A DNA stretch of 57,187 nucleotides, filler included, from Asterionella formosa (taxonomy: Eukaryota), in assembly GCA_002256025.1 (NCBI GenBank). It is 7 parts of 7 records of this genome, joined end to end, with 100 filler letters (N's around TTAATTAATTAA, not from the genome) between each part and the next. Parts side by side here need not be neighbours in the genome. Positions count along the whole stretch, not along the records: positions 40,956 to 49,022 come from NKIB01012326.1; 6 more parts are not named here. One strand, 5' to 3'. Numbering within the stretch: the stretch's first letter is position 1; every line of letters starts with the position of its first letter. A program made the translations under genes and the position numbers. Below, one piece after another: positions 1,651 through 56,163 of this stretch. The notes under the pieces were generated by a model, which was not told the DNA's origin, made no database searches, and saw nothing but the letters and a program-made list of their open reading frames with translations.

Positions 1651-2283
1651 CTGTAAACATAATTGTCCTGGACCCACCAATGAACACTGCAATGACTGAA
1701 TTTGACTGATTTTACTTGTGGGGTCAGGACAATGAACAGATTTCCCTAATACTAGAACTAAGTAAATTTTATAAGGAAGTTCTACAGGATAGCGCACATT
1801 TTTCTAATATGGATTAGTAAAACAACTATTTCCGTAAGGTAAAAAATGAGAGAGTTCTTCACCTCGCAAGAAAAGCGCGACTTCATGTCGGCAATCTCAA
1901 TTTTAATCGTCATTATTAGAGTGATTACTTTACTTCTTTTATGATTGTATTTTCTATGTCATGTTTAATATACTAGGTAGCAACTAGGAAAGCGTCGTTC
2001 TCAATTTTCGCAGAAATTCGTATTTTCGTCATGGTCAAGATTGTGACAACATGATGCAAGATTCGCTCTTCAGCTGCTTACAACCACTACCTGGTGTCTA
2101 CTCTATGTAGTGTTAATATTTGCAAAAGAATTGGAACATCATAGCTATATAATTACATACCAACAGCTATAATCACCAAAAGAATTGTAGCACATTAAAT
2201 TGACTGACTAGAATATAATTGGGTGTTTGGTTCCACCTCGAGAAAAATGTACAGGGGGGTGCAGGACAATGAAGTTTATGGGG
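1651..2283 (+). mobile_element. Internally deleted non-autonomous (MITE-like) derivative of the pogo-like element at 39918
   Basis: 1662-1887 aligns by eye to 39930-40154, including the first ~14 transposase codons. A right TIR-like GGGGGGTGCAGGACAATGAAGTTTATGGGG ends at 2283 and is followed by TA. Confidence 0.8.
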
Positions 2284-8107: not shown

Positions 8108-8207
8108 NNNNNNNNNNNNNNNNNNNNNNNNNNNNNNNNNNNNNNNNNNNNTTAATTAATTAANNNNNNNNNNNNNNNNNNNNNNNNNNNNNNNNNNNNN
8201 NNNNNNN
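8108..8207. other. Artificial contig spacer
   Basis: N44-TTAATTAATTAA-N44 (stops in all six frames). Confidence 0.99.
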
Positions 8208-8498
8208 TTTACTAGGCCAAATAAACGAGTTAGCCCGGTAAAATCCACTATTTTCAGCATACCGGTAGTTTAAAAAACCGAAGTTCCTTTCTGCAGTTTC
8301 TCGCCAGATCCTATATCCTGACGATATATAGCGTTGACCTATACCCCTACTTTGATAAATGACTGTATTTAAGCATGTGGAAAGGGTGTGTATTGGTGAA
8401 AGCTCCGTTTAGCGATATACATTTACGTTTTACTCGTAAGAAGTCTATGTTTGACTACTCTGACTTAATATTATTTTTTTAACCCTACCTCGAGCTAG

Positions 8499-8521
8499 GG
8501 GTTCAAATGCAGGAACCTTAA
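8499..8521 (-). mobile_element. Probable DNA-transposon terminus at TTAA (Kolobok-like); counterpart at 46589-46611
   Basis: Reverse complement TTAA-GGTTCCTGCATTTGAACCC vs TTAA-GGTTCCTGCTTTTCAACCC at 46589 (17/19 after TTAA). Confidence 0.5.
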
Positions 8522-8625: not shown

Positions 8626-9010
8626 GTACCTGGTACTGTAGACATCCGCCACAGGAACACTAACGGTACCAATGAAGCTCCGGTGCTTGAGATATTTAGC
8701 TTAACCTTTCGGTAAGTAAAGAATGTGTTTTACCTGACCTTCTGGTACCTGGTACCGGTACCAGTGCAAGTTGCGGCCATTTTGTTCAAATAAACAATTT
8801 AATCTCAATTTCCGCAACTTGCAGGTAGACGACAAGCAAGGTGATGATGCGATTTCCCCGAGGATACCAAGTCTTGTACCTGCTATTGGTATCTGGTACC
8901 GGTACTGTACAGTAAATTGTACAGTACCTAGTACTGTATCGTACATAAGAATGCCCCGAGTACAGTCGTAGCTATAAGCAAAATGCGGGATAGAATTGGT
9001 ACTGCCGGTA
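8626..9010. repeat. Cluster of TACCWGGTA/TACCGGTA/TACWGTA motifs upstream of the kinase
   Basis: e.g. GGTACCTGGTACCGGTACCAG at 8744-8764 and GGTACCGGTACTGTACAGTA at 8895-8914. Confidence 0.8.
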
Positions 9011-9507
9011 TTAACACCAGTGGTTGTTTCCGTGCTTAATTTCTTGTTGACTTTGGTCGTCCTTTGGTTGCATCTTCTCAACTCCAGAGTCCATTGTTGT
9101 TTGTTTCTATTTTTCCTACCCCTTAGTAGGTCCGAACATTCAGCAAGTGTTTTCGGTAGCAAAAGGAACCGACACAGATATAGATTAGACGCACGAAGGC
9201 TTCTGTTGATTCAACGGATTTGCACTGTGCTGGAGTGATTCGGCTCGTCCTGGCACATCCTTGTGGATTTCTGATTCTACATTACTTCGCTCCTGCTTTG
9301 ATCCAATACCTAGCTCCTATTTGAAAGATAAAATTGAACATAGCGCAGTTGACTGATTTTCAGTGTCTGTCAGTGTGAAGTGATTCAGTTGAATCTTGTA
9401 ACGAAGCCTGTAAAAACCAGAACCGTTTCCTCTCGTGTGTCGAGCAAGCAACGACTGTGTTATCGTAAAGGACTCTGATCGTCGCCGCCCGTTCAAGCCA
9501 GATCACC

Positions 9508-11735: not shown

Positions 11736-12100
11736 GGCTTATTGGGCTTACATCACTGTTTTATAATCTTCACTACCTAGCTAAAATATTTGGCCACCAA
11801 TCGATGTTCGGTTTAGTTTCAATGCTCAGAATTGATTAACAAACAGAGTAAAATTGATCATTAGGTGCATCTATTAGCCAATTAATAAATGTTGAGAGCG
11901 TTTGCTTCTATGGCCGGTTTTTTTTGGATTATGTAGAGATTTACATTTATACCGTACTTTTCCCAAGGGACATGGAGAACTTGCATGACATATCAACTCA
12001 ACATTCCTTAACATACTTAAGTATTTACCGGCATGTGGTGTACCCAGTTCATGTGTAGGCTCATTCATACCAGCTGTCAACTATCGGCATGTGAAAAGGC

Positions 12101-12137
12101 GTACCAGGTACCAGGGTGGTACCAGGTACCAGGTACC
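12101..12137. repeat. (TACCAGG)n-type array upstream of the channel gene
   Basis: GTACCAGGTACCAGGGTGGTACCAGGTACCAGGTACC. Confidence 0.85.
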
Positions 12138-12503
12138 TTTGTCATTCAACGACCACAGACGATCATGACGATCGATCATCGCGCGTGAATGATTCTGTTC
12201 AAAACAGGAATATAAAAAGCATGTTGTTGAATACATAATATAAAAATGATAACCGGTACTCTACATGTCACACATCTTATGCACGTTTGATGGATAGTAT
12301 TCCCCGTTTGTATTTATTTGTACATGAATACTTTGGCATCGCTCGCCTTCCCTTGCTATCATCGTTTTTTCAGCATTTCTATCAATTGCACGTATGCGTC
12401 TGTACTTGCATGATTTGTGGCTACTCCGTCGACGACTTCTCGGTAAAACTAATTGGTGAGCAAAAAATCAATTCCAGGTGTTCTTGTTTCTCAGTTTCCC
12501 AGC

Positions 12504-13445
12504 ATGTCCCCAAATGGCGATGGCCAATATGTATTGGCTCAAGAAGAAATGGCGCAACGCTACTCGATTTTTCGAGATTTTGCAGGAAGAATTGTCAATG
12601 ACACCCGATTTCAGGTCGTTATGATCGCGTTGATTGTGATCAATAGCATCCTCATGGGCATTGCTACCTTTGACTTTGTCACCGAAGACCCAAAAGTCAA
12701 CAAAATGTTTGACACGCTTGATTTACTTTTTTTGATTGCATTCACTATTGAGTTATCCATTTATTTCGCTTGTTACGGGGTAGGCCTCTTTGCAGATGCA
12801 TGGATGACATTTGATTTTACAGTGATTCTTTTTTCCTGGGTCTTTTTTGGTTCACCTTTTCAAGTGATTCGAGCCTTTCGCATTGTTAGAGCCTTCAGGC
12901 TTATAACCAGAATCAAGGAACTCAAGCAGCTGGTTGAAGCGCTCTTAAGTGTCATTCCCCGAATGTTTGCTATTGGCACCCTTTTGTTGTTGGTCCTCTA
13001 TGTATACGCCGTCATGTTTACCCAGCTTTTTAAAGAACTTTATGAAGAAGGGTACACGTCCGCAGATTACTTTAGCCGAATGGATAAAACCATGTTCACT
13101 TTGTTTCGGATTATGACACTGGATAGCTGGGCGGATATCACACTGGAGGTCATGCAAAAATACAAGTGGGCGTGGATTCCATTCATGACCTTTGTTGGCA
13201 TGTCCTCTTTCATCGTCATCAACTTGATCATTGCTGTCATTTGCGACGCCGTGTCATCCATCCAGACCAACGAATTGTCAGAGCAACTTGATAATATACA
13301 GAAGAAAGCGTCAGGGGATCGATATGACGAACAATCCCAGCTAGCCCAACTGAAACTCCAGATGGACGAGGTGACAACGACTTTGCGGTGGTTAGCGGAC
13401 AATCAACGACAACAGTACTCCGCCGATCATACCAAGCTGGTTTAG
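12504..13445 (+). CDS. EUKCATA: Single-domain 6-TM voltage-gated Na+/Ca2+ channel (EukCatA / BacNav-like)
   Basis: S4 IRAFRIVRAFRLITRIK, pore TLFRIMTLDSWAD, S6 INLIIAVICDAV, C-terminal coiled coil. First in-frame ATG is at 12504 (ORF track begins at a non-ATG codon at 12453). Confidence 0.88.
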   Translation: MSPNGDGQYVLAQEEMAQRYSIFRDFAGRIVNDTRFQVVMIALIVINSILMGIATFDFVTEDPKVNKMFDTLDLLFLIAFTIELSIYFACYGVGLFADAWMTFDFTVILFSWVFFGSPFQVIRAFRIVRAFRLITRIKELKQLVEALLSVIPRMFAIGTLLLLVLYVYAVMFTQLFKELYEEGYTSADYFSRMDKTMFTLFRIMTLDSWADITLEVMQKYKWAWIPFMTFVGMSSFIVINLIIAVICDAVSSIQTNELSEQLDNIQKKASGDRYDEQSQLAQLKLQMDEVTTTLRWLADNQRQQYSADHTKLV

Positions 13446-15545: not shown

Positions 15546-16070
15546 AGTACCAGGTAGACTACCTGGTACCTGGTCCTGGTACCTGGTACATATAATACAG
15601 TTCAGTTTGCATACAGTACACCGGCGGTTGGTACCGGTACCTGGTAGGTACTACCAGGTACCGGTAGACGATTAATTAACAACAACAAAAACTCACATGC
15701 GCATCACTCGACCTCTTCAGCTCTATTTCTTATGCCGGTTTTATTTTATGTACATAGCCTGACATAATCACAGACACATACCGATAGTTGCACATGCGTT
15801 TTGTGTGTCTGTCGTGCATCAAATTTCATTTTGTGTCCGTCATCATCATAGCCGATTCAAAACACGACAGCACAAAGCAACAACCAATTTTCTTGTGTGT
15901 GGCCGTCACACAAGAATCAAATAGAATATATTCGATTTCACTTTTGGACTACCAGGTACCATTTAGGAGTACCTGGTACCAGTACCAAGTACTACGACTA
16001 TATAACGGTAGTAAGAATACCGGTAGACATGTTGTGTTCCCGCCTGATGCATTACTACGTATACCGGTAC
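15546..16070. repeat. Dense TACCWGGTA/TACCGGTA cluster upstream of NTT2
   Basis: 15546-15590, 15630-15666, 15949-15995 and 16062-16069. Confidence 0.85.
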
Positions 16071-16311: not shown

Positions 16312-16411
16312 NNNNNNNNNNNNNNNNNNNNNNNNNNNNNNNNNNNNNNNNNNNNTTAATTAATTAANNNNNNNNNNNNNNNNNNNNNNNNNNNNNNNNN
16401 NNNNNNNNNNN
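16312..16411. other. Artificial contig spacer
   Basis: N44-TTAATTAATTAA-N44. Confidence 0.99.
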
Positions 16412-16939: not shown

Positions 16940-18620
16940 CCCAGTATATCACTTCCTACCTGCTACTGGTACTCTTTATATATATATGATAAAATGTTTT
17001 TGTCGTATGATGTACCGGTACACATGAAGAACTCCTGCCCAAAAAAGGAGCTTAAACAATTTGCTACCAAAATCCTTGCATGTAAATAATGATACAAATG
17101 GGGTATGACTTAGTACACCAATTGAATGGTCTAAATAATTAGTTCCAACGGACGTAGAAAATATTGATGCAAACGAATTTCAAAAAAACAGTACCGGTAC
17201 ACGAAGTCGTGGAAAACAATGGACATATAGTGCATTGAATCTTTTCGAATAATCTATATGCAAATATGATCATCTCAGCAATACTAGATGTTCCATATTG
17301 AGAGTACCTTGATTTCTATAAATGTACAACACTTGATATATTTATGTATTTACAAATTTTATAACTATATGAATGGCAAATATATTTGAAATCGTTCTGT
17401 CATGTTAACAAACAATGCCTGCTTCATGAAAAGAAATACCGTAAAGCACATGACAAGAAACGCAATAACGAAAAACACTGCGGCTTCGACACATTGCGCC
17501 TTCAAAGGATGGAGTATGTTTAAGGTAATGAAGCCATCAATGTGGTACTTGGATGACAATTGTTGGGAAGCAGGACAACAACAAATTGTAAACGCACATT
17601 TCCTTTTTTCTCAGTTGAATCAACAGCTCGTTTCGCTTGTTGGGGAGCACCAATGTAAAACAAAACAAAATTGGTAAGTGCTCTTGTCATTGGACTTATT
17701 CACTTCTGATGGAACATAACTGACTGACACGCCACAACATTCACCTTCTCTCAAAGTTAAGCTAACGAAAATGAATTGGCAAGTTTTATTTGGTAACATT
17801 GGAAAGCAACCTGAAACTTACTTATTCAAGAATTTACTAACAATTTACTATTACAGACTTATACATCACTTGCTTTGATTTGGCTGTGGTAAGTGAAGCA
17901 AGCAAGAGGATAAAACCACGATGGAATGGCGTGATGTTGTGTCAGTGTAACATGTCTAGCTAACAAGTCGTTCCTTCTCATTGTTACTGTAACTGCATAG
18001 GACAATAAAACCGATCAAACATCAGAATAGTCGGCGAGTTCAGAATGACATTAACAGCAGGGAGAGAGACGCAAAAGTAATAAGGCATTGATTTTTTTGG
18101 CACAAGATTCAGAAAAGAGGACGAAAAGGGCGAGACAGGAACAATATACATTGAGCCGAGTAGAGAGAGAAACATTGGGTTGCTGGCATGTAGAATAATA
18201 GATAGTATTGCTAAATTTGATAGTTAAATTACGATCCATTTCAATCTCTTTTGAACAATGCTTGTGATTAGAATTATGATCATGTTTACGATAGATTAAC
18301 GATGAAACAATTTAAATGATAGCATAGAGTTGAGCTGATTTTAGGATGCGTTGTAGTAATAATTTACATCAGGCAATCACGAAAATAGAAAATAATATGA
18401 GAAGGTTTATGATGTTGATGAGTTGATATACATTGTGTGATGATAATGTTCTTATTATCATTATACTTTAAGGTCGGTAAAATATTAATAAATCATCATA
18501 GTTATAGGATACCTTGATCATAGTTTTGATCCAAAAATTATCATATATACGAAAATCCTGTGCCACTTAGCATACAATACTCTTGATCCTATATGCATGG
18601 TCCTTTTTTATTTGCAGACG
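16940..18620. mobile_element. Unclassified long-TIR DNA transposon ('family X'), end A
   Basis: ~1.7 kb co-linear with 49687-51360 and reverse-complementary to 40956-41785. Ends in TTTATTTGCAGACG, directly abutting the LINE RT region. Confidence 0.8.
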
Positions 18621-21600
18621 TATGTTAATGGAGGTTGAGGAAAGCCAAGGTGAAGTTGCAAAGTGTCAATAGTGATGCGGAGGAGAAGTCCCACATCGTC
18701 TGTGGCGCACAAATGCCCTAGGAGATATGGAAGGTGATGGGTGCCTTGCATTACCCACAGTTCTGGGATTTGAAAGCCACTGTGGAAAGAAGAACCAAAG
18801 ATTATGGTGCGGGCAGTGGTTTGAGCAATGCCCATTTCAGAGAGAAATGCACTGACATAGGCTGTCTGGATTTGCGTACACTGAAGTTGTGTGAAGGATG
18901 TAACAGAGAGAGGATATGAGATAGCAGGACTCCACATTGCATTGAATGCGGTGTAGCCTTCTGTTCTTGTGTGTGGTGCAAGGGAGATATTTGATACCCA
19001 TCTTTTTGCTTGGGTGAGACAAAAATGAAATTCTTGATTAAACGAGCCATCAGGGGCTGCTCTGACGCCGTGAGAGCATTTTCCAGTGTGACATTCTATT
19101 AGCGGGATAGGGAAGGAAAGACAAGAAGATCTTCCGGAAGTCATATTGATAGTCAAATGGGGGGAGGCCGAGTTTGGTTGAAGGGAGTGGCACCCGTGGC
19201 AATCCCAGGTCCAGTCCATTAAGTAGAAGAAACATTTTTGCAGGGCTAGAGCGCCCCCACTAGCACAAAGAAGGCGGTCCCATTGTTGTGCAACTTCTGC
19301 CGTTGAGGCAACTAGCTCTGAACCAGTAAGGATGTCAGAGGATCGCCTCAGGTCAGTGTCATCCACAAATGCTTCGCGTGGGCGTTGAGAGATAAGTAAG
19401 CCACAGGGGCAACATGCGTAGAAGCCATCTGTTAAGGAGCTGAGGGCATGTAGCAGGACATTGCTAAGAAACATCCAGATGCAAGGTGCCGCAGCATTCC
19501 CCTGGAGGGGCCAAGGATAAGGAGGGTGGTAGTGGTAGTGAATGATGTGGTAGAGATACCATATGCTGTGCGGACATAGAAGGCCACCATGGCAAGAATT
19601 ATTGCTAACATGCATTTTGTTGCGGATTTTGGGATCCTAAATCATTCTGTGGCCATGAGACCTAGGGAGGGTACTATCCGGTCACAGCAGGCTTTGGCAT
19701 TGTTATTGAAGATCACTGCGGTGGTGCAACGAAGGCGGATGTAGTCGTAGGAAAGTACTTTTAGTAACAAGGCACTTAGGCATAGGCAGCTGGCACCTGG
19801 GAGATTCCCAAAATTCCATTTATTAAGAGCATTGTGATCAAGAGCATGATATACCAACTGTAGGCAAAACGCCAAATTCATGTCTGCCTCTAATAATTGT
19901 ATGACATGGAGACATGTAAGGAGAGGGTTTCCCACATCTTGATCCACCGAACTGGAGCAAAAGCTAGTTGAAAGGGAAGAGTTATCATATAGGCCAAAAG
20001 AGCAGAGATATTGTCATCCTGTGCTAGGACCTTGTAATGTGTGACATGGCGACCGGAAGGACTGGATGCTGTGTTTTCTGGGAGGAGATGGAAGCTTTCC
20101 TAAAAATCTTCCGGAGTGATCATGATTTCAATCGGATCAATCCCAAGAAGAGATTCAGGGATAGCCATGGACTAGAGAAAGAGTGAGACCTCGTCTGAAA
20201 TGGGGTCGATGGATGTAGTGTCAAATGCTCCTTGGAGAATAGCCATGCTGGGTGCAAAGGACTGCAGATTTCTTTTGGGTGTCATTAAGAGCACGGCGGG
20301 CGTGCGGCTAAGGGACAGTTTTGGTTATATTGTAGGTTATATCTGTTGGTTAGAATGGCAGCAGAGTCCGGATGATTTAGTTTGAGAGGAGTAGGATGGC
20401 TAGCTAGCAAGGGAACCGCCATAGGTGCGGCAGTTGGAGCAGCCGCGTTTCCAAAATATGAAGTCTTGACCCAGAGCCAGGGGTTGGGGACCATGGGTAG
20501 CCATAGTTGGACTTAGATGTCCGTTTTTCTGCAGTGAGTAGAGCTGCAGTGATATCGTGGTCCAGAGATTCATATGCCGCAATGAGCTCTAAGAGAGGGA
20601 CTTTGGCGGAAACCATGTTTGTGAGATTAACTAGGCGGGGGAAGACATTATGAGATGTTAAGTATCCTTTTACCAGTAAAAGGTATTTAGCACATTGGGA
20701 AGGGTTCCGAAGACAGAGTTGACGCTGGGTAGGGGCAGTGGGATCTGTGGAGGAGTCCTGAAAGAGAGTAGCTTCATCTAGGTCAACATAAATAGCGCGA
20801 AGATCACTGAATGGGCTGTGTTGGAAACTAAGTATCCCCTCTTTCCCAACAGAGGAGCGGAGCAAGTAGGTCCCAAAGATGAAGTCAATTTGGCAGCCTT
20901 TTGATGATGTGTTGGCTGCAGTTGGAAAATTGCATGCAAATCAAAAAGAGAGCATTGATTCATAAAGAAGAGTATTTCAGGGTCGGAAAGAATAGAATTG
21001 GCATCCCACATTAAAAGTATTTCATGTTGTTTGCATATAATAGACTTGATAAAGGTAGTGAGTGAGCTCAGCATTGCCTGCCAAGGATGAGGAGAGAGAT
21101 CATTGCATTGTAGAATGAGGTTTGATCGCTGCTGTTCATAGGCTGTAAGGGGTCCAGTGCAATGATTTTGGCAAACTCAGTATGCTGTGATGATGGTGAT
21201 GCGGCGGTCTTCAAAAGAGCGGAGAGTTTGGTAGCTCCACCTGCCAACTGGATCACTGCCAGACTCCATCACCCAACCATTGGTGCATCCAGTGACGAAT
21301 TGTAGTGTACCGCCAGCCTGTGAGACACAGCTGTTAGGCACTGCATTGGGAGTGTGGGCAGTGGTGAAGCGGCGGTGGGGCCATCGGGTTTGAATAGATC
21401 AGGAAATGGATGAACGGATTGGGTGATTGGACCAGTTTATGTTGGTCTCCGAGAGGCCAACAAATGTTGGTTACAGTGAGGCGAGTTGATTCAAATAAGT
21501 AAATCGTTCAAAGTGATCATGGTGAAAGGTATTGCAGTTTTGGAAAACAACTCGGAGAGTCATTGGGGAAGGATCAGTGAGAGGGTGGCCCCAGAACGCG

Positions 21601-24050
21601 TTGGGAAGCACTTTGGAGCAGAGTATGTCGAAGTCAGTAGTGATTTGGAAGTGGGAAGAGAAATTGTTTTGGTCGTGTTGTGCGCTGTGGTGGCTCCATC
21701 TGACCCTGGCAAGGGGCAGAATTGCCAAGCAAACTAATTGAGCCCGTCGTCTCCCCCATCAATCATTGGAGTGGGGTGAGATGACTCTTGGGGGAAATTG
21801 TGGGGGAGTGGATATGTTGAAGATCTAGTAGTTGCTTCTTTATGGCGTTAGAGATCATGGCAGTTTCAAAATCGGGAGGAGAGAGAGTGGAGGCTACCTG
21901 GGCCGCAATAAGATGAGACAGTTGGGGGAGGAGGTCAATGGTGAAGGCATTGTTCAGATTTGAGGTCACTTTAGCCAGAATATCTGCCTCGTTTGGAGTG
22001 GAGGCAGATAGCTCGAGTGCAAATGCACTTAATTTGGAGTCCATGAGGGCGGAGACTGTAACGGTATCCAATGGGGGAGGATCACAAGAAGTCGAGCAGA
22101 GGTATTGAGCCTGGAAGATAGGTCGTCGACTTGGGTTTTGAGAAGGGCGATATTGGAGGTCAATTCAAGGAGATGTGGTGCATCGGAGGAGACGTGAGTG
22201 GATAGTGTAGTCCCAGATACTGAGGGAGGACCTGAGTTCCGTGGTGAGGGTGAGGATGGGAGCTGGGAATGTGTAGGAGACTGAAATGTGGTGGAACGAG
22301 ATCGATTGTTGGTACCACGGCCGCCTCTGCTGGATTTGGAAGTGGGGCGAGATCGAAGAGAGTTTGTTATTTGAGCTGGGAGATCGCGCAAACTGAGTTG
22401 GCTGAAAGGAGAGTAGCAAAGGAGGGAATCGAGCTCAGTGGTGGAGCTGGAGACCAATTCATCCAGAGTAACTGTGGTTGTGTGTAAACCAGGGTTGTGC
22501 CATACATCGGCAGAGGTAAGGGCTGGGTAATGTTGAAGTAGGGGGGTGGGATAGAGAGTTTCAACCAATGATTCTATGTAGCTTTTGTTCGCAAAGTGTG
22601 TACAAAAGTAGAATATTACTGACAGATCAAATTTGTCAGTTTCTATACTTCTGATTAGGTAGTTCTGACCGGGAGAGGGTTCTGGGAGACTGAGTAGTGC
22701 GTTCCCAAGAGTATCAAATGAGTCCAGAAGAACATGATCGAGGGAGAGCAGGCCGCTAATGCGAACAGCATCTTCGGCAGTCTGGAATTGTTGTTGCTCT
22801 TGGAGTTTGTGGGCATAGGCATAGTCAGTGAGGCCGATAAAGGTGAGAGACAAAAATACCATAGTGCGTTGGCATGGATAGCGGGATGGGAAACAGTTCC
22901 GTTCCTTTGGGGAGATGATTTCCTGAAGGAGGCGGCGTACTTGGACTTGAAAAGGAGGAGAGGATGCGACAACAATGGCGGATGCTGATATAGTAGGCAG
23001 GATATTGCCCTGGGCCATGGAGCTTTTGTCAAAACGATATGATTGGGAGTTCCACTCCTAGAACCTCTAAGGAGAGAGCCTTAAGTTGAGCCTGGAGGAC
23101 AGAGCGATTCATCCTGGCAGATGAATACAAGAACCAGCCGCAATCAGTGGGGAGGCCGCCGTTGAATTGGTCTAACCGTAAATTCCAAGTGGGATGAGAC
23201 AGAGTGATTGAGTTGAGAAGAATGGATGCAGCCTTGCATGTGCGAAGGTGAGTCTGGCCTTTTACTATTCGATCATCGAGGTTCCGGCCACCTCGAAGTA
23301 AGTACTATGTAAAGTTGTTAAGGTGAATCAGATGTTGGAGAGGAGATTGGGCGGAGGTGGCGGGGTTGGGGTGATCCATGGTGTGATGCTTGGCGGGGTC
23401 TCCTGAAACTGGAAGAATCGAGGCATGACAATCATGAAAGAATATCGATGAGAAAAATGGAAGAAGAGCCGCAGCAATCTCCGCAGACAAATAATTATTG
23501 GGCAGGGGAGGAGTGACGAGAGGCATCGGAAGTTGGAAGAAAAACCAGACTTGGTGAAAGCCCACCTCAAAGGGGCGAACGGGTTTAATGGACAGAGGAT
23601 CGGAAACATACTGAGGAGCAAGAGAGCCATGAGAAAGAGAAGAAGACAGAGAGAGAGGGGTGGATCAGGAGGCTGGCTGTTTTTTGGTTGCTGGAGTGAC
23701 GAACAAGGGCATCATTGGAGTGTCTACGGAGGTTGCGGGGTTGGAGGGACGCTTCTTGGTGTTGTGTTAGGAGTCGGGAATGGATGCAGAGTGGGGAAAA
23801 ATGGGAGGCAAGTGGATGGGAGACGGTGCGGAAGGCGGTAATGGGAAGGATATGGCGTGTCGCTTAAAATAGTCGCCTAGTAGGCGCGGTTGTCCAGCGC
23901 CAACCGATTTTTCGAGCTTTGACGGCATCCATAGGATCGTCAATAGGGGTGGTCGGCATTGCGGCTGCCGAAAGCGCCATGTGGGGGGATGATCGGAGCA
24001 GCAACAGCAGCGTAGGGGTGGCCGTATTACGTGTACCAGAGCAAAAGAAG
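18621..24050 (-). mobile_element. Degenerate non-LTR retrotransposon (APE+RT, Ambal-like); 3' end interrupted by family X
   Basis: ORF1-like region ~21760-23980. APE motifs LRVVFQNCN, GLSETNINW, WDANS, SDLRAIYVD. RT motifs SSPSGRH, IQLLEADMN, NAKACCDRI, QGNAAAP..W, AFVDDT, LLCASGGALALQKC. Many stops and frameshifts; 5' boundary approximate. Confidence 0.82.
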
Positions 24051-24494: not shown

Positions 24495-24594
24495 NNNNNN
24501 NNNNNNNNNNNNNNNNNNNNNNNNNNNNNNNNNNNNNNTTAATTAATTAANNNNNNNNNNNNNNNNNNNNNNNNNNNNNNNNNNNNNNNNNNNN
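24495..24594. other. Artificial contig spacer
   Basis: N44-TTAATTAATTAA-N44. Confidence 0.99.
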
Positions 24595-26103: not shown

Positions 26104-27013
26104 TCACCTGGTACCTGGTACCGTCTACCAGATACTAGTAGTCAATCTACACATATCTTTGGTGTTTACCGGTTCCAGGAACCTGCATCCATATTCATGT
26201 TGAAACCCTGCGCACTACGTATGTATCCACTTAGGCACCTGGTACCAGGTACCTGGTACCAACAATACAAAGCATAACACATGTACCCAGTACACAATAT
26301 CATAAAACAAAATTAACTTCGCGTATACTCCTATATACTGTATTTATTTTATGTACAGTTATATTGTTTGATTACCGGTATATACCATACCCGGTCTGCA
26401 TGTTCGGACAAGTATTCGCAATATTCGGACTTTCCCAGAACTCCCAGAAAAACAGGAAAGATCGGCAAACAGCACAAGCAGACTGGGGAAAAATTGAGCA
26501 ACCATGGCAGCAAATTTAAAATCCAGCAAAAAAATGAAGATGAACTTCGAAGGCAAGAAAGAAACATGTAAACCTCGCAAGAAGGTCATGGAAGAGTCTA
26601 TCTGCCAGAGAACAACCATGCAGAGGGTTCAAAGCAGAAAACTCACAATACTCTGAATAAGCTTTTGACAAAAGCAAATTGTTGATCACCAAGCCTTGCA
26701 AATTTACAGTCTTTAGATTAAAAATTACCAACCCAAACTCCCACCCATGGCTAATGTGCAAAACTCGACTGCAGCTACTATGGGAAACCCGGAGGAAAGG
26801 AACTAACCAAGCTACTTATAACCAAATTCAAAAACCAACTACAAGTCTAGATTAGTTGGCGCAACAAATCAACCTCAACAAAGAATCAAAATAGAAACAA
26901 AGGAACATTTGAATAAAAGGCAGTCGAATGAGTAGGTAATCGAGTCGAAGCAAGTAACTTTGTGATATTTGAGTACCAGTACCAGTACCAGTACCAGTAC
27001 CTGGTACCTGGTA
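26104..27013. repeat. TACCWGGTA cluster plus (TACCAG)n microsatellite
   Basis: 26107-26122, 26237-26260 and (GTACCA)4-GTACCTGGTACCTGGTA at ~26973-27013. Confidence 0.8.
26388..26436 (+). repeat. Probable Tc1/mariner-type element end (TA-CCCG...), second copy at 35029-35083
   Basis: TACCCGGTCTGCATGTTCGGACAAGTATTCGCAATATTCGGACTTTCCC vs TACCCGTTCAGCATCTTTGGACATGTA[CCGGTA]TTCGCAATGTTCGGACTTTCCC. Confidence 0.6.
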
Positions 27014-32675: not shown

Positions 32676-32775
32676 NNNNNNNNNNNNNNNNNNNNNNNNN
32701 NNNNNNNNNNNNNNNNNNNTTAATTAATTAANNNNNNNNNNNNNNNNNNNNNNNNNNNNNNNNNNNNNNNNNNNN
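32676..32775. other. Artificial contig spacer
   Basis: N44-TTAATTAATTAA-N44. Confidence 0.99.
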
Positions 32776-34912: not shown

Positions 34913-35742
34913 CTACCTGGTACCAGGTACCAGGTACTAAATCATAGTCATCGTGCCTTCACATTCACATAAAATATATGTGTGGCCATCATATGCATAT
35001 ACCAGGTACCTGGTACCATGTTTTACCGTACCCGTTCAGCATCTTTGGACATGTACCGGTATTCGCAATGTTCGGACTTTCCCGGCCCTGGATGAAAAAA
35101 ATTCAATAGCGCACCTACAATTATTTCGCGATGCACGAAGTACATAAAAGCAAACTGTCCAACTCTCTATGACATAAGGACGTTGTGTGTGTGCATCATG
35201 TCCCACAATGAATACTGTTGTCATACATAGATATACACACAGTATAGATGATAGATCAGCCAGCCTCACTGGACCAGTTTTAAGACAAATCCGTTAACCG
35301 GGCATGAAAGAAAATGATGCGACATGGTATCTGGTACGAAAAATGGTACCAGGTTTCATACAACAAGTACATATATACTCCGACGAGCTAAAAATGTCTT
35401 TCGCTACCGGTACCTTATAGCAAAAATGAAAGCGTGTGATCCTATACCTATCTTATGTAGGGATCCAATCCAATTACAAGAATGAGTGGCTGTCGATTAT
35501 GGTGGTACCAGGTACGCAGCAGCTCGGGATCGTGACAGTCGGTTTTCGATTTCGGTAGTTTAGCCAATGTATTCTTACTTCTCTACACATGTTACCAGCT
35601 ACCAGGGTACATCAGCAAAAGCAAATACCGGTATATGGACCCGTATGAATATGAACACCGTCAAGTGTACAAGACGGGGCATTTCATACCTTTTCAATTA
35701 CAGAATTACATGAAAAAGGCTACCTGGTACTCTATCAGGTAC
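34913..35742. repeat. TACCWGGTA/TACCGGTA cluster upstream of the metallopeptidase
   Basis: TACCTGGTACCAGGTACCAGGTAC at 34914-34937; also 35000-35017, 35054-35061, 35405-35414, 35505-35514 and 35721-35742. Confidence 0.8.
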
Positions 35743-39917: not shown

Positions 39918-40855
39918 CCCATATATTTCATTGTCCTGGACCCCCCAATGTACACTGCCGTGACTGAATTTGACTGATTTTACTTAAGGGGGGTCCAGGA
40001 CAATGAAGAGATTTCCCTTATACTAGTCCTAAGTTAATTTTATTAGTTCTACAGGATGGCGCGCATTTTTCTAATATTTATTAATATGATCACTGTTTCC
40101 GAAAAGTGAAAAATGAGAAAGTTCTTCACCTTGCAAGAAAAGCGCGACATCATGGATGAAGCATGGGAACTCCCCGGCATCATCAAGGTTGTTGCACGTA
40201 AGTATGGCATTGGCGCCAGCAATATTCGGCGCTGGAAAGCTAACTTTCATGATTTCGACAATCGTTATTCTGATGTAGAAGGTTTATTGTCGGATGAGGG
40301 GCGCCTCCTTCTGAAAAAACAAACTTTTCATTCAGGCAAGTTGCGTAGCAATAGTGCAACTGAATTTGCGGCGATTCGTCTCTTGTATGATCAGCTTCGT
40401 GGTGATGATCGCGCTTGTTCGATCATGTTGCTTGCTGCTGAGCTGAAGCGCTTGTCGGGACATGTTGCTAGCTTGAGCGTTATTCAACAGCGTGTAGCTC
40501 GTTGGTGCACATCCCAAAACATTGTGTATCGTGGTATCACCCACAAGGCACAAAACACGCGCTATGTACTGAGTGTCATGCAGGAGTATCTCCATTACAT
40601 AAACGCACAGTTTCTTGAAGGGTCGTATCATCGTGCTAGTATCGTAAATCTAGATGAGACAAACATTTATTTCTATATGGCAGGCGGGCTCACGCTAGCT
40701 GATAAAGGTGCGAAAACCATCAGTTTACACACCAATGGTAGCAGCATGTGTTGCACAGTGTTGTTGGGTGTTACCATGTCTGGAGAGAAGCTTGCTCCTC
40801 TTGTTGTTTTCAAAGGAGTACCTGATGCCAGGATCCAGCGAGAATTCAACAATCA
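39918..40855 (+). mobile_element. pogo/Tigger-like (Tc1/mariner superfamily) DNA transposon, left part
   Basis: Inserted after TA at 39916-39917; TIR CCCATATATTTCATTGTCCTGGACCCCCC; related copy at 1651-2283. Confidence 0.87.
40113..40855 (+). CDS. pogo-like transposase (HTH + CENP-B-type HTH + DDE_1), 3' truncated at contig edge
   Basis: VARKYGIGASNIRRWK, ITHKAQ, IVNLDET, CTVLLGVTMSGEKLAPLVVFKG; open to the contig end. Confidence 0.88.
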
Positions 40856-40955
40856 NNNNNNNNNNNNNNNNNNNNNNNNNNNNNNNNNNNNNNNNNNNNT
40901 TAATTAATTAANNNNNNNNNNNNNNNNNNNNNNNNNNNNNNNNNNNNNNNNNNNN
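40856..40955. other. Artificial contig spacer
   Basis: N44-TTAATTAATTAA-N44. Confidence 0.99.
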
Positions 40956-42774
40956 CTTAACTTTGAGAGAATATAAACATTTTGTTAGTTTTGTTCCAAC
41001 AGAAGTGAATAGGTCCAACGAGCGACAAGAGCACTTACGCAATTTGGTTTGGTTTTGTTTTACATTGGTGCTCCCCAACAAGCGAAACGAGCTGTTGAAT
41101 CAACTGAGAAAAAAGGAAATGTGGCTGCGTTTAGTTTACAATTTGTTGTTGTGCTGCCTGCCTCCCAACGATTGTCATCCAAGTACCACATTGATGGCTT
41201 CATTACCTTTAACATTCTCCATCCTTCGAAGGCGCAATGTGTCGAAGTCACAATGTTTTTCGTTATGCATTGCGAAAACTTTCTTTTCTTGTCATGTGCT
41301 TTACTACGACGTATCTTTTCATGAAGCAGCAGGCATTGTTTGTTAACACGACAGAACGATTTCAAAAATATATATGCCATGTATATAGTAATAAAATTTG
41401 TAAATATATATATTTATATTAAGTGTTATACATTTATAAAATTCAAAGGCGCTCTCGATATGGAACATCTGATATGGTTGGGATGATCATACTCGCATAT
41501 ACATAATTCGAAAATACTCAATGCACTATATGTCCATTGTTTTTCACGACTACGTGTACCGGTATTATTTCTGAAATTTGTTTGCATCGATATTTTCTAC
41601 GTCCGTTGAAACTAATTATTTAGACCGTTCAATTGCCGCAAGGGTTTTGGTAGCAAATTGTTTAAGCCCCTTTTTTGGTTGGGAGCTCTTCATGTGTACC
41701 GGTACATCATACCGGTATGACAATAACAATATATCATATATATATACGGAGCACCAGTAACAGGTAGTAAGTGATATACTGGGGGTAGTCGGAGTAGTAA
41801 ACTAGCAACAGAACACCATATGTTCAGGACTGTTGCTACTGCAGTGGGACAGTAAATCATCATAGTTTTAGGATCCTATGATCGTAAAAAACACCAAAAA
41901 AACACCATATGCTTATGACTGTTGCAATTACAGTGGAACATTAAATCATCATAGTTTTAGGATCAAATGATCGTAAAACTAAAAACAAATCGAAAACTAT
42001 ATGTTCAGAACTGTTGCTACCATAGCACACTGCAGTGGAACAGTAAATCATCATAGTTTTAGGATCATATGATCGTAAAACTAAAAAGCATTAGTCGGAG
42101 TAATAAGCAAGCAATAGAACACCATTGTAAATCATCATAGTTTTATGATTGTATGATCGTGAAACTGAAAAGTGGTACCGGTAGTCGGAGTAATAAGCAA
42201 GCAATAGAACACCATATGTCTATGACTGCTGCTACTACAGCGGGACAGTAAATGAATTTAAGATCATCGAACTTTAAGGAAGACAACGACAACAGCTGGT
42301 CGTGTTGCTGGTCCACTTTTAATGGCCAAAGAAGGAAGCGACAAAAATTGCTTACGACGCGAAGTGAAAGCGGCACCAACAATCATTGCAATGAGAGCAT
42401 TGTAGAACATTCTGTAGCCACTTAAGATATAGAATCATAGCACCATTCTTAGCTAAATATAGTTCTAAATTTCGATCAATTTCATCCTATTTTAGACCCT
42501 GATATCGATGAGAATTACGATCATGCTAAGATAGATGTATGACAAAAGTATACACATCATATGACCATGTTTAACTAATTATATGATGCAATGGTATTTT
42601 AACTATGATAGTCTCATCATACTTCAAGCTCGGTAAAGTTTACTGCATGATCATAATTATATGATACATTGATCATATTTTTGATCGAAAAACTATCATA
42701 TATGTGAAAATCCTGTGCCACTTAGAGTATGATACCCTTGATCATATTTTCATGATATTTTTTATTTACAGACA
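40956..42774. mobile_element. Family X copy: inverted end-A interior, minisatellite, end B
   Basis: 40956-42295 is the reverse complement of 49180-50505. 42364-42774 matches 51817-52234 and ends TTTATTTACAGACA. Confidence 0.82.
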
Positions 42775-49022: not shown

Positions 49023-49122
49023 NNNNNNNNNNNNNNNNNNNNNNNNNNNNNNNNNNNNNNNNNNNNTTAATTAATTAANNNNNNNNNNNNNNNNNNNNNN
49101 NNNNNNNNNNNNNNNNNNNNNN
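49023..49122. other. Artificial contig spacer
   Basis: N44-TTAATTAATTAA-N44. Confidence 0.99.
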
Positions 49123-49179: not shown

Positions 49180-51360
49180 CTGTTGTCGTTGTCTTCCTTA
49201 AAGTTCGATGATCTTAAATTCATTTACTGTCCCGCTGCAGTAGCAGTAGTCATAGACATATGGTGTTCTATTGCTTGCTTATTACTCCGACTACAGCTTT
49301 TCAGTTTCACGATCATACAATCCTAAAACTATGATGATTTACTATCCCACTGCAGTAGCAACAGTCCTGATCATATGGTGTTCTATTGGTTTTTAGTTTT
49401 ACGATTATACGATCCTAAAACTATGATGATTTACTGTCCCACTGCAGTAGCAACAGTCCTGAACATATGATGTTCTATTGGTTTTTAGTTTTACGATCAT
49501 ACGATCCTAAAATTATGATGATTTACTGTCCCACTGTAATTGCAACAGTCATGAACATATGGTGTTCTTTTGGTTTTTAGTTTTACGATCATACGATCCT
49601 AAAACTATGATGATTTACTGTCCCACTGCAGTAGCAACAGTCCTGAACATATGGTGTTCTGTTGCTAGTTTACTACTCCGACTACCCCCAGTATATCACT
49701 TACTACCTGCTACTGGTACTCTGTATATATATATGATATATTGTTATTGTCATATGATGTACCGGTACACACGAAGAGCTCCCAACCAAAAAAGGGGCTT
49801 AAACAATTTGCTACCAAAACCCTTGCGGCAATTGAACGGTCTAAATAATTAGTTTCAACGGACGTAGAAAATATCGATGCAAACAAATTTCAGAAACAAT
49901 ACCGGTACAGGTAGTCGTGAAAAACAATGGACATACAGTGCATTGAGTATTTTCGAATTATGTACATGCGAGTATGATCATCCCAACCATATCAGATGTT
50001 CCATATCGAGAGCGCCTTTGAATTTTATAAATGTATAACACTTAATATATATATATATATTTACAAATTTTATTACTATATCCATGGCATATATATTTTT
50101 GAAATCCTTCTGTCATGTTAACAAACAATGCCTGCTGCTTCATGAAAAGAGACGTCGTAGTAAAGCACATGACAAGCAAAGAAAGGTTATGCAATACATA
50201 ACGAAAAACATTGTGGCTTCGACACATTGCGCATTCGAAGGATGGAGAATGTTTAAGGTAATGAAGCCACCAATGTGGTACTTGGATGACAATCGTTGGG
50301 AGGCAGGCAGCACAACAACAAAATTGTTAACTAAACGCACATTTCCTTTTTTCTCAGTTGATGCTCATTCAACAGCTCGTTTTGCTTGTTGGGGAGCACC
50401 AATGTAAAACAAAACCAAATTGCGTAAGTGCTCTTGTCGCTCGTTGGACCTATTCACTTCTGTTGGAACAAAACTGACAAAACGTTTACCTTCTCTCAAA
50501 GTTAAGCTGACAAAAATGAACCGGTAAGTTTTATTCGACAACATTGGATACCCGAAACTTACTTATTCAAGAATTTGGCTTACTGACAATTTACTGTAAT
50601 AGACTTATGCATCAGTTGCATTGATTTGTGGTAAGTGAAGCAAGAGGATACGGTGGAATTGTGTGTCGTTGTGTCAATGTAACATGACTAGCTTACAAAT
50701 CATTCCTTCTCATTGTTACTGTTTCTGCATAGGACAATAAAACCAATGAAACAACGGAATAGTCGGTGAGTTCAGAGAGTCACTAATTGCAGGGAGAAAT
50801 GCGAGACATTAAGCACTGCATGGCGCAAGATTCAGAATAGAGGAAGGAAGGGCGAGACAGGATCAATATACATCGAGCCGAGTAGAGAGGGAAACGTTGG
50901 GTCGCTGGCATGTAGATCATTAATAGATAGCATTGCTTAATTTGATAGTTAAATTACGATCCATTTCAATCTATTTTGAACAATGCTTGTGATTAGAATT
51001 ATGATCATGTTTACGATAGATTTACGATGAAACAATTCACATGATAGCATAGAGTTGAGCTGATTTTAGGATGCATTGTAGTAATGATTTTCATCGGGCG
51101 ATCACGAGAAGTGAAAATAATATGAGAAAGTTTATGATATTGACGAGAAATGTTGTTGATCAGTTTATATACATTGTGTGATGATAATGCTCTTATTATC
51201 ATTATACTTCAAGGTCGGTAACATATTAATAAATCATCATAGATACAAGATACCTTGATCATATTTTTGATCCAAAAATTATCATATATACGAAAATCCT
51301 GTGCCACTTAGCGTACGATACCCTTGATCCTATATGCATGATACTTTTTATTTACAGACG
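49180..51360. mobile_element. Family X copy ending in end A
   Basis: Homologous to 16940-18620 and, inverted, to 40956-42295; ends TTTATTTACAGACG. Confidence 0.82.
49222..49680. repeat. 92-bp minisatellite inside family X (~5 units)
   Basis: TCCTAAAA anchor at 49321, 49413, 49505 and 49597. Confidence 0.92.
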
Positions 51361-51816: not shown

Positions 51817-52234
51817 TGAAAGCGGCACCAAGCAACAATCATTGCGATGAGAGCATTGTAGAACATTCTGTAGCCACTTAAGATATAGAATCATAGAACC
51901 ATTCTTAGCTAAATATACTAGTTCTAAATTTCGATCCATTTCATTCTATTTTAGACAGTGATATTGATGAGAATTACGATCATGCTAAGATAGATGTATG
52001 ACAAAAGTATACACATCATATGACCATGTTTAACTGATTATATGATGCAATGGTATTATAACTGTAATAGTCTCATCATACTTCAAGCTCGGTAAAAGTT
52101 TACTGCATGATCATAATTATATGATACATTGATCATATTTTTGATCGAAAAACTATCTTACATGTGAAAATCCTGTGCCACTTAGCGTACGATACCCTTG
52201 ATCATATTTTCATGATATTTTTTATTTACACACG
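51817..52234. mobile_element. Family X end B of a second copy
   Basis: Matches 42364-42774; ends TTTATTTACACACG. Confidence 0.8.
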
Positions 52235-53135: not shown

Positions 53136-53539
53136 GTTGGATATGATGATTTTTTCTTTTTTAGTGTAGCTATAGAACTTGACTGTTACAAGTGAAGGAA
53201 ATTTGTTTTATGAGACAAAACAAAATGAAAATAATAATGGTTTGTTTGCGAATGAGAAGCAAAGAACTCCTAGTACTGTCTCCACGAGGTGTACCTCGTG
53301 GAGGATTGCAACTGATGTCCGCCTTCTCGTAGTGCTGGCTATGTTCTTCTTTGTTGAAGTAATAATGTAAGTTTTCGTCACGTCAATTGAATTGCTCAGC
53401 AGCTCGGCTCGTTTGTGATTGTTCGTTCCTTTCGACTCCTCTGCTTCCCTCACCATGGGAAGGAGAAGTAAACTGCACTTTCAATTCCATTTCACTTGCT
53501 CACACCAGCCATTTCTTCCATTGCCGTTCCATGTCTTTG

Positions 53540-53655
53540 CGTTTCCATTTCCGTTTCCGTTTCAGTTTCAGTTTCAGTTTCAGTTTCAGTTTCCGTTTCC
53601 GTTTCCGTTTCCGTTTCCGTTTCCGTTTCCGTTTCTGTTTCTGTTTCTGTTTCTG
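53540..53655. repeat. Hexamer microsatellite (CNGTTT)n with blocks of CCG/CAG/CTG variants
   Basis: Direct reading. Confidence 0.92.
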
Positions 53656-54303
53656 TGCTCAATGGATATGACTGTTCCTAAGTATTCTCTCACATTCTTC
53701 GATGATGGAGAATGTTTACGTGATGTATTATTACAATTTGATGCAACTATGATTGTGGAATCTTCATATGCGCTGGAAATTAAAGCTGCTGAATATAATT
53801 ATGTGAATATGCATTGATACAGTGGTGAATAAACAGATGCATTTAACAACAAGCAATGCTACGGTCATGTTTGCGAACTATTTTGGTTAAATATCAAACA
53901 TTATTTGATGGAACATTAAAAGTTTATCCGCATAAACAGGTACATTTGGAATTATTATCAAATGCCATGATCCCTCGTCATCAATGAGCATATCCTGTCG
54001 CTCATATTCATTTAGAAGTTTTCAAAACCGAATTAAACCCTAACCCTAATGGTGGAGAGGAGGTACCTCTCAAGGGAGCGCTACGTGAGAAACCAGTACA
54101 CACTTGTACTTATTATGAAATTAATTACTTAGGACGTTCGAGATTAGATTTACAAATTATTCTATGGAATTATGATCATATATTTTGGTATTGGATCTAC
54201 AGGCATGTGTTTCCGAGATGTCCAAATCGTCATTTCGGCAATTTTACCGCAACTTGCTGGTACCTGGTACGGAGTACCAGGTATCGGTCATCATTTGCAC
54301 CCG

Positions 54304-54473
54304 CCTGCCTGCTGAAGAATCATGAGAGAAGCAAGGAGTCATGAATCAGTGTACTTTAATTGTGAAGAATCAAGCAAGTCATGAGGATAACCTGCCTGCT
54401 GAAGAATCATGATTGAAGCAAGGAGTCATGAATCAGTGTACTGTAATAGCGAAGAATCAAGCAAGTCATGAGG
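54304..54473. repeat. 87-bp tandem duplication upstream of the membrane-protein gene
   Basis: CCTGCCTGCTGAAGAATCATGA starts at 54304 and 54391. Confidence 0.9.
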
Positions 54474-54768
54474 TGTACGTAAGCAGAGATCTTGACTTGC
54501 TCCCCAGTAAATGTTTTAATACGCATGCCGGTACCGTTCAAATTTCTTTCAACCTTTTTTGCTTCTATGCACGCTAGTAGGAGCGCTTTTGTATTCTGGC
54601 CACTGTAGAATGGTTGACCCCATATTCGTACGACGGTTTGACGATGACATTGAGAGCTATTGCTTCTGTCGCGCATCAAGAATGAAGATAAAGAAAACAT
54701 TTGAAGTACTTTGCTTATCCTCCATAAATTCTGTGCTCTTGTGTTGTCTTTTTGAGACTGTTCACAAC

Positions 54769-55479
54769 ATGTCGTCAAGCAATAGTAACAATAATAAGAA
54801 GAGTCATTCAAAAGCTCGGTTTGCAGAAGAAGCAAAGGAGGAAGAGATGGAAGCCACTGCATTGGAGGATTTGCTAGAAATCCCGTTTGCAGAGGAGGCG
54901 AAAGTGGAAGACCAAGACCAAGAGAAGAAAGCCGCAGTGGTGACTCCTCAAGATAACAAACATTCGTCTGATATCTTTGTTCCAGCGGTCTCATCAACAA
55001 CAGCAGCAGCTCCACCTCGAGAAGTTGTGGCAGCACCATCACAACAACAAGTCCGTCCTGGCGCAATTGCAGTAGGAGGACAAGGATTCATTCCACATGA
55101 AGATTCCTACTTGCATCTCGACCCTACTCCTGCCGCTAGCGCCAACGAGTTTCAGGATGAATATGCTGACCAGCTGAGACCTGCATCATTATTCAATGCT
55201 GTTCTTGTGGACGATCCTGAAATCGCCAGTGCCTCAATTTTTGACCAAGAAGCAGTTGAAAAAGCCTTTTGTCGACGTCAAGTGTGGATAGTCTTCTTGG
55301 CAGTCTTCTTGGCCTTATTACTTATCACAGTTGGTACTTTCTTTGTTTTTAAGAGTGTGTTTGGTTATGGAGACTGGTTGGTAGTTTTTGTTGTTATTTT
55401 GATTTGTTTTGTTTTTTTTGCTGTTGCTGCTGCTTTTTTTTCATTCATCAAATGTTGCAGCCCAAGCTTAAACATTTAG
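54769..55479 (+). CDS. Small membrane protein (acidic disordered N-terminus, PGAIAVGG motif, two C-terminal TM helices), ~236 aa
   Basis: Open frame from MSSSNSNNN to TAG. N-terminus resembles that of diatom type II membrane receptor-like proteins. Confidence 0.6.
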   Translation: MSSSNSNNNKKSHSKARFAEEAKEEEMEATALEDLLEIPFAEEAKVEDQDQEKKAAVVTPQDNKHSSDIFVPAVSSTTAAAPPREVVAAPSQQQVRPGAIAVGGQGFIPHEDSYLHLDPTPAASANEFQDEYADQLRPASLFNAVLVDDPEIASASIFDQEAVEKAFCRRQVWIVFLAVFLALLLITVGTFFVFKSVFGYGDWLVVFVVILICFVFFAVAAAFFSFIKCCSPSLNI

Positions 55480-55585
55480 GTTATTATGACATAGATGCAT
55501 GATTAAACAATCAATGTATAGCTAATGAAAAACAGTGGACATGATTTCACATGTACTACTATAGTTGCATTACTTTTTCCACTAT

Positions 55586-56163
55586 TTCCACTTTCGTCTC
55601 CTCTGCAAACGGGATTTCTAGCAAATCCTCCAATGCAGTGGCTTCCATCTCTTTCTCCTTTGCTTCTTCTGCAAACCGAGCTTTTGAATGACTCTTCTTA
55701 TTATTGTTACTATTGCTTGACGACATGTTGTGAACAGTCTCAAAAAGACAACACAAGAGCACAGAATTTATGGAGGATAAGCAAAGTACTTCAAATATTT
55801 TCTCTATCTTCATTCTTGATGCACGACAGAAGCAATAGCTCTCAATGTCATCGTCAAACCGTCGTACGAATATGGGGTCAACCATTCTACAGTGGCCAGA
55901 ATACAAAAGCGCTCCTACTAGCGTGCATAGAAGCAAAAAAGGTTGAAAGAAATTTGAACGGTACCGGCATGCGTATTAAAACATTTACTGGGGAGCAAGT
56001 CAAGATCTCTGCTTACGTACACCTCATGACTTGCTTGATTCTTCACTATTACAGTACACTGATTCATGACTCCTTGCTTCAATCATGATTCTTCAGCAGG
56101 CAGGTTATCCTCATGACTTGCTTGATTCTTCACAATTAAAGTACACTGATTCATGACTCCTTG
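55586..56163 (-). repeat. 578-bp inverted duplicate of 54332-54909 (promoter plus first ~47 codons)
   Basis: Near-identical reverse complement (about six substitutions seen); ends exactly at the LTR. Confidence 0.95.

Follow-up and report, generated by a model that had tools for sequence, protein, structure and literature searches.

What writes the same short palindrome, again and again, beside TA dinucleotides in the DNA of the diatom Asterionella formosa? The question is raised by a stretch of 57,187 nucleotides (the window) from assembly GCA_002256025.1, in which TACCGGTA and the nine-base TACCWGGTA recur far above expectation and in which the two can be seen, at a handful of sites, to differ from a plain TA by the gain of a unit of six (CCGGTA) or seven (CCWGGTA) bases. 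These gains at TA are genuine and recurrent, and the units are still segregating. The window is made up of seven contigs (8107, 8104, 8083, 8081, 8080, 8067 and 8065 bases, in order of falling length) separated by six spacers (8108-8207, 16312-16411, 24495-24594, 32676-32775, 40856-40955 and 49023-49122), each of the form N44-TTAATTAATTAA-N44, a pattern that looks like a length-sorted set of contigs joined by a linker with stop codons in six frames. Because the window consists of joined contigs, the repeat copies compared below as pairs sit on separate contigs. An enrichment of TTAATTAA (16 sites) is an artefact of this construction, 12 of the 16 lying within the linkers.

The clearest gain is found in a repeat present as copies A, B and C (Table 1), in which the initial annotation had noted a six-base difference between B and C. 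At this site copy B has TCATA-CCGGTA-TGAC and copy C has TCATATGA (TCATATGAC, at about 49750). In a three-way alignment B and C are mutual closest relatives, with 91% identity to each other against 82% to A, and because both A and C have plain TA, the difference is a gain in B (41712-41717); copy A thus provides the polarity that the pairwise comparison lacked.

Three further differences between repeat copies, listed alongside this one at the outset, survive in part. The difference between 42176-42183 and about 49290 is a real six-base gain that creates TACCGGTA (copy B reads AAAAGTGGTACCGGTAGTCGG, copy C AAAAGCTGTAGTCGG and the paralogous unit at 42089 AAAAGCATTAGTCGG), but one or two extra substitutions must be assumed as well, so that a simple insertion at TA does not suffice. 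Both copies carry tandem arrays of an 84-92-base unit in this region (41799-42283 in B, 49298-49664 in C), the number and order of units differing between them. The six-base indel that separates 35054-35061 from 26413 is also real, but it lies within a two-copy repeat of about 55 bases, is accompanied by one neighbouring substitution and is unpolarised. Finally, the short TA-C-TA form (51916-51920 against 42460) is a genuine indel of no diagnostic value, because three-base indels are common (35 rows between repeat copies).

A second polarised gain comes from contig 2 (8208-16311), to which contigs of four metagenome runs from four studies (X1, X4, X6 and X7) were aligned; X4 spans only 14 of 30 bins of the contig and contributes little. 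The contig begins inside a copy of a high-copy element (8208-8521) that reads CAGCATA-CCGGTA-GTTTAAAAAACC, and because all five other copies, whose right flanks differ, are without the unit (CAGCATAGTTAAAAAACC, CATAGTT), 8262-8267 is likewise a gain at TA. The consensus of the loose ends of 53 X1 and 13 X4 contigs also ends ..AGCATAG, that is, without the unit. This gain sits in a transposon copy, where selection for a promoter site is not expected. With two gains polarised (41712-41717 and 8262-8267), the central claim of the initial annotation, that CCGGTA is gained at TA, is borne out.

In X1 the summed contig depth of the high-copy element exceeds that of the single-copy part about 3000-fold, a ratio of depths that should not be taken as copy number. 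High-copy repeats occupy both ends of contig 2 (8208-8521 and 16083-16311), with depths of about 2-2.6 million against about 700 for single-copy sequence in the same run. The element ends ..GGAACCTTAA, continues leftwards in other copies for over 350 bases and contains a 34-base perfect internal inverted repeat; its 20-mer has no match in the prokaryote genomes searched. A metagenome scan with that 20-mer returned 12 contigs, 11 of which (21.8 kb) were used as a related set; contig L002 (GC 0.56), which seems unrelated, was omitted from the counts. Across the window and these related contigs, the 12 rows of six-base indels between repeat copies reduce by eye to 10 events, three of which are the unit (chance below 1e-6, by rough estimate), and neither of the two seven-base events is CCWGGTA.

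Differences between strains point the same way. Among the 12 of 16 indel rows listed, four (12115, 15574, 16125 and 16126) were excluded for repeat-inflated depth and taken as contigs from other loci, and the remaining eight represent six single-copy loci in 8.1 kb. Three of these six, among the rows listed, are the unit, two of them at TA (8627-8635 and 12082-12083); the third, the X7 difference at 9015, resembles a change in unit number away from TA. Compared with the window, X6 has about 25 substitutions in about 6.7 kb, unit indels amounting to about one tenth of the substitution count (our own count). Record 21 of X6 lacks seven further bases somewhere within 11833-12555 (by arithmetic), and record 32 of X7 has 12 extra letters within 15680-15936 that are not itemised. 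Because strains differ by the unit, the process is recent or ongoing. Taking repeat copies and strains together, TA has become TA-X-TA in five of the six scored gains or differences (41712, 8262, 8629, 12082 and 35056, the exception being 9015), the added bases lying between two copies of the TA target.

Table 1. Unit gains, arrays, repeat copies and transposon-related features, in window coordinates
Position	Strand	Feature	Context
1654-2278		621-base TA-flanked element, imperfect 23-base inverted ends AACATAATTGTCC / AACTTCATTGTCC	related to 5' end of pogo-like copy
8260-8267		TACCGGTA by CCGGTA gain (8262-8267) at TA	one copy of high-copy element 8208-8521
8627-8635		TACCTGGTA; 7-base unit missing in X6 and X7 (CAGTACTG)	place 8626, CAGTA[CCTGGTA]CTG
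9013-9020		AACACCAG in window; AACACCGGTACCAG in X7	place 9015, ACCGGT put in, AACACC[GGTACC]AGTGG
12082-12083		plain TA in window; TACCGGTA in X6	place 12081, TACCGG put in, CAACTA[CCGGTA]TCGG
12102-12135		array of CCAGG units	
15548-15666		cluster of CCAGG, CCTGG and CCGG units sharing TAs	upstream of TLC transporter gene
16940-18620		repeat copy A	
26243-26258		array CCAGG-CCTGG	
26972-27013		(AGTACC)5 perfect hexamer run, then CCTGG-CCTGG	
34914-35015		two arrays, CCTGG-CCAGG-CCAGG and CCAGG-CCTGG	64 bases between
35054-35061		TACCGGTA	partner 26411-26414 plain TA; one adjacent substitution; unpolarised
40110-40855	+	pogo/Tigger-like transposase gene fragment (candidate)	cut by contig end
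40956-42295	reverse	repeat copy B	at contig start
41697-41704		older TACCGGTA, 13 bases upstream of 41710 site	common to all three copies (also 17013, 49760)
41710-41717		TACCGGTA via CCGGTA gain (41712-41717) at TA, derived	copy B; copies A (17005) and C (49754) plain TA
42176-42183		TACCGGTA by 6-base gain plus 1-2 extra substitutions	copy B; copy C and paralogous B unit without it
49180-51360		repeat copy C	
51916-51920		TACTA, TA at 42460	3-base indel

How widespread the unit is can be judged from its counts. There are 25 sites of TACCGGTA in the window against 0.33 expected and 34 of TACCWGGTA against 0.25, figures not attained in any of 100 shuffles, and the two words top the enriched 8- and 9-mers respectively. 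All seven contigs carry sites (at least four each), and the 11 related contigs add a further 20 and 8. Together with the mixed spectrum of CCGG, CCAGG and CCTGG, this upholds the proposal that the motif is spread across non-coding DNA. None of the 59 sites falls in the 7692 bases of coding sequence of five Pfam-backed genes, where eight would be expected; clusters of sites lie about 200-1100 bases upstream of open reading frames (ORFs).

The anatomy of the unit is equally restricted. Of all TA-X-TA words surveyed, AT repeats aside, only CCGG, CCAGG/CCTGG and CCAG/CTGG stand out, and 34 of the 35 TACCNGGTA sites have A or T at their centre, so that the core is palindromic about a W-only centre. 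The junction spectrum (CCGG 25, CCWGG 34, CCAG/CTGG 13, CCSGG 1, CCATGG 0) has the range of related junctions expected from end joining, though the CCAG/CTGG forms may reflect CpG decay instead. One-mismatch variants of TACCGGTA are in excess by about 23, next to 25 perfect sites, and are led by the CpG transitions TACCAGTA (8) and TACTGGTA (5), which looks like steady birth and decay. For the seven-base form, decayed variants are fewer than perfect sites.

What might produce such a unit? The reading that we favour, and which we regard as evenly poised between right and wrong, is that the units are scars of a TA-inserting cut-and-paste transposon with Tc1/mariner/pogo-type chemistry and ends CC...GG. 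Insertion of such an element would duplicate the TA, and the cut made in the non-transferred strand at excision would fall a few bases within the element, leaving TA plus CC on each flank; end joining would then yield TA-CC+GG-TA, that is, TACCGGTA. One extra A on either strand, whether untemplated or the third base of the element end, would give TA-CC(A/T)GG-TA. Each scar would bring two new TAs, at which re-insertion, together with ordinary slippage, could build mixed arrays, and scars would subsequently decay, quickest at the central CpG. The former presence of an element at these sites, its end sequence, the offset of the cut and the origin of the central W are what we infer from the form of the gains. 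The chemistry has precedent: both Sleeping Beauty and mariner place their nicks 3 nt within the element, the donor is left with 3' overhangs, and footprints between duplicated TAs result from end joining (PMC7827188; PMC4344528). We prefer CC with an optional A to a CCA overhang, because the latter would predict TACCATGGTA, of which the window has no site.

An element with the appropriate ends was sought in the 57-kb window and the 21.8 kb of related contigs (~79 kb in all). A scan for TA-CC...GG-TA with 14-base inverted ends gave only arrays and positions inside an inverted repeat at 54332-56163, and a scan for TA-flanked inverted ends of any kind gave no CC-ended element, so that within this sample the residual bases do not correspond to the terminal bases of a resident element. 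The elements starting TA-CC that the initial annotation had placed at three positions are not confirmed: at 39916 homology to the second copy begins only at 39930 and the family has ends other than CC, whilst 26388 and 35029 are simply the two copies of the 55-base repeat, in which a second end is lacking. The interpretation as cut-and-paste footprints made there accordingly keeps its duplicated TA, palindromic core and A/T centre, but is left with no TA-CC...GG-TA element in the sample.

A TA-targeting superfamily does appear to be present, in the form of a candidate pogo-like ORF (40110-40855) and a TA-flanked 621-base relative (1654-2278). The ORF has a CENP-B_N match with E 0.0054, weaker than the Pfam cut-off, a DETN motif in its translation and atlas neighbours in Tigger/pogo clusters (score 0.93). 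Family ends are TA-AACATAATTGTCC, TA-AACTTCATTGTCC and TA-TATTTCATTGTCC (beginning AACATA.., AACTTC.. and TATTTC.. after the TA), and to judge from them the pogo-like fragment is not likely to be the source of the unit. The pogo-like gene that the initial annotation had named for an excision assay is a fragment at a contig end, and the termini of its family are other than CC. The 621-base element begins with sequence that is also present in the 5' region of the pogo-like gene (39922-40155), and both hold a hairpin, ATTGTCCTGGACCCCCC..GGGGGGTCCAGGACAAT.

Several points weigh against excision scars. No donor was found in the ~79 kb, which is a small sample and does not amount to genome-wide absence, and the only TA-flanked family seen ends in AAC or TAT and not in CC. 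The simplest join of non-pairing CCA overhangs, TACCATGGTA, is absent, and the seven-base form needs an extra assumption. A density of about one site per kb would require very frequent cycling. One of the three strain differences (9015) is not at TA, and the 42176 gain requires extra substitutions. Two sites have been kept intact in copies A, B and C despite 18% divergence, which hints at constraint. Finally, the same hexamer occurs within about 60 bases of three of the five TA gains, making local copying possible.

This last point leads to the first of the rival explanations, in which a break at TA is repaired without any transposon, either by a polymerase-theta-type templated patch from a nearby motif or by end-processing that adds CC(A), the motif spreading by local copying. 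The nearby hexamers are 41697-41704 beside the 41710 gain, CCGGTA at 8235-8240 beside 8262 and TACCGG at 12026-12031 beside 12082; the strong clustering of sites and the failure to find a donor in the ~79 kb would also fit. Clustering, however, makes a nearby copy likelier under any model, and at 42176 and 35054 the nearest exact CCGGTA is about 466 and 350 bases off, so that local templating is not possible there. Templated insertions normally vary in length and sequence and do not consist of one fixed unit with a duplicated TA, and the addition of CC(A) to the ends of DNA is not a known activity. We therefore hold repair of this kind to be unlikely as the source of the units.

Alternatively, the palindromes could be sites for a dimeric transcription factor held by selection in promoters, with arrays as homotypic clusters and the indels as ordinary turnover. 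The position of the clusters upstream of ORFs and outside coding sequence, the two sites intact in three diverged copies and the shortage of decayed seven-base variants would all be accommodated, and both TACCGGTA (M94) and TACATGTA (M93, motif-1) have been published as putative promoter elements in Phytophthora (PMC3597505; PMC3520976), although in the available parts of these papers M94 is not among the motifs tested. Selection nevertheless leaves unexplained the one-step, repeated birth of an exact six- or seven-base unit with a duplicated TA, including one inside a transposon copy, and a half-site spacing of 0 or 1 with a W-only centre is unusual for a dimer. A binding-site role is a matter of function and is compatible with an origin by mutation; as an account of that origin it is weak, and we rate it as distinctly improbable.

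The arrays raise the further possibility of a plain microsatellite, in which heptamer or hexamer tandem repeats grow and shrink by replication slippage. Slippage would account for the change in unit number without a TA at 9015, the perfect (AGTACC)5 run, which has probably been amplified in this way, and the additional seven-base loss in X6 mentioned above, and runs of three or more TACCWGG units occur at 84 prokaryote loci, for the most part as homogeneous arrays among other heptamers. Yet 28 of the 49 motif chains in the window are lone units in unrelated sequence, with no near-unit adjoining (most TACCGGTA sites are of this kind), and it is because of these that slippage alone cannot produce the units. 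New units do not arise only beside identical ones: at 41712, 8262 and 12082 the gain is from zero to one. Single arrays also combine CCAGG, CCTGG and CCGG, and the prokaryote loci are without isolated sites around their arrays. Slippage is thus refuted as the sole cause, for which it is very improbable indeed, whilst still contributing to array length. An origin from hairpin opening (P-nucleotides) was rejected, the pre-insertion sites having no CC.

As regards the arrays themselves, a 20-mer from one of them (12118-12137) is found in 23-25 other X4 contigs, and because the flanks there are unrelated and without consensus (agreement about 0.4), the arrays are not the termini of a high-copy element. 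The suggestion that excision seeds the upstream arrays is plausible, but sits less well with the whole-unit change away from TA at 9015 and with homogeneous arrays of the same heptamer in bacteria that lack any such process. A 31-base perfect palindrome at 15630-15668 (CCGGTACCTGGTAG-GTA-CTACCAGGTACCGG) is TA-flanked and consists of mirrored units, and similar mirrored pairs occur at 15548-15568 and 54261-54283. Short palindromic 'long footprints' were considered as a clue to the element ends and rejected, since they are merely composites of the units themselves.

Other features of the window can be mentioned briefly. It encodes a TLC ATP/ADP transporter, a PPR protein, a kinase, an ion channel and a glycosyltransferase; the closest named relatives of the transporter are diatom proteins (69-77% identity). 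The inverted repeat at 54332-56163 has 578-base arms (54332-54909 and 55586-56163) that are 99% complementary, separated by a 676-base spacer and flanked by 87-base tandem repeats. Strong GC skew (0.22-0.38) extends over 6 kb at 18001-24000, where long minus-strand ORFs have no Pfam match, and a hexamer microsatellite of about 20 TTTCCG/TTTCAG/TTTCTG units occupies 53536-53653.

If the units are scars, a single mobile element shapes the promoters of a common freshwater diatom as well as its spectrum of indels, and metagenomes can reveal the activity of that element through the presence or absence of a word of six or seven bases. If no element exists, the insertion process itself would be new. 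The origin of the palindrome (mutation) and its use (binding) become separately testable. A literature search, with subscription journals outside its coverage, found no report of these insertions in diatoms.

Among known systems, the footprints of Tc1/mariner elements are the obvious comparison. Tc1 leaves TA-CA-TG-TA and Sleeping Beauty TA-C(A/T)G-TA. As in the diatom, TA is duplicated on both sides of a few palindromic bases and there are several length variants, the odd-length form having in both a mismatch-type A/T centre. The resemblance ends with the element, since none with matching ends is present in the ~79 kb of diatom sequence searched, and with abundance: the diatom units occur at about one per kb, are chained in arrays and make up about one third to one half of the medium-sized indels seen, whereas taCATGta is described, in the part of the source available, as a rare Tc1 footprint in C. 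elegans (PMC3520976).

Bacterial heptanucleotide repeats share the TACCWGG heptamer itself, in intergenic tandem arrays. A scan of prokaryote genomes for a three-unit array gave the 84 loci (L023-L106), in Gemmatimonadaceae, Acidimicrobiia, Chitinophaga-like and other metagenome-assembled genomes, and several genomes hold 3-6 loci of (TACCWGG)3 or longer where chance would give well under one (a rough figure). These arrays differ from those of the diatom in being mostly homogeneous and lying beside arrays of other heptamers, with no isolated units and no excess of TACCGGTA in 10-kb flanks. Ten viral loci with a two-unit array were set aside as coding or chance matches with no link to the diatom; two of them (L013 and L020) seem to be one sequence in reverse complement, their motif flanks matching. 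Because bacteria hold homogeneous arrays of the same heptamer without isolated units, it is the isolated gains at TA, and not arrays as such, that are diagnostic.

The closest parallel is with Phytophthora, another stramenopile, in which the very same 8-mer, TACCGGTA, is abundant upstream of genes, as is a sister palindrome that shares its TA-NN-N'N'-TA form. In P. infestans TACCGGTA (M94) and TACATGTA (M93, with 4150 promoter hits) are high-confidence promoter motifs (PMC3597505), and across species TACATGTA (motif-1) lies upstream of 12,070 Phytophthora genes (PMC3520976). According to the accessible portions of both papers, the motifs are interpreted as sites for homodimeric factors; the string 'transpos' is absent from one, in the text available (PMC3597505), whilst in the other a footprint origin of TACATGTA was weighed and then set aside, the motif being abundant and conserved (PMC3520976). 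The two organisms differ in that TACATGTA occurs just once in the diatom window, and in that the diatom unit is seen arising by insertion, where the available text of these papers does not report insertion polymorphism for the Phytophthora motifs. We would tentatively suggest, as a possible but doubtful generalisation, that a TA-specific process writes one palindrome so often that it becomes a leading class of medium-sized indel and fills promoters with arrays, the simplest version being insert-and-excise cycling of an unseen element, or else a process with no transposon, and that the stramenopile 'promoter motifs' TACCGGTA and TACATGTA may have been born in the same way, any use by transcription factors coming only afterwards. 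The footprint question in Phytophthora was, as far as the accessible text goes, settled by argument only (PMC3520976), and is reopened by the diatom, where a palindrome of this class can be observed directly as it arises by insertion at TA.

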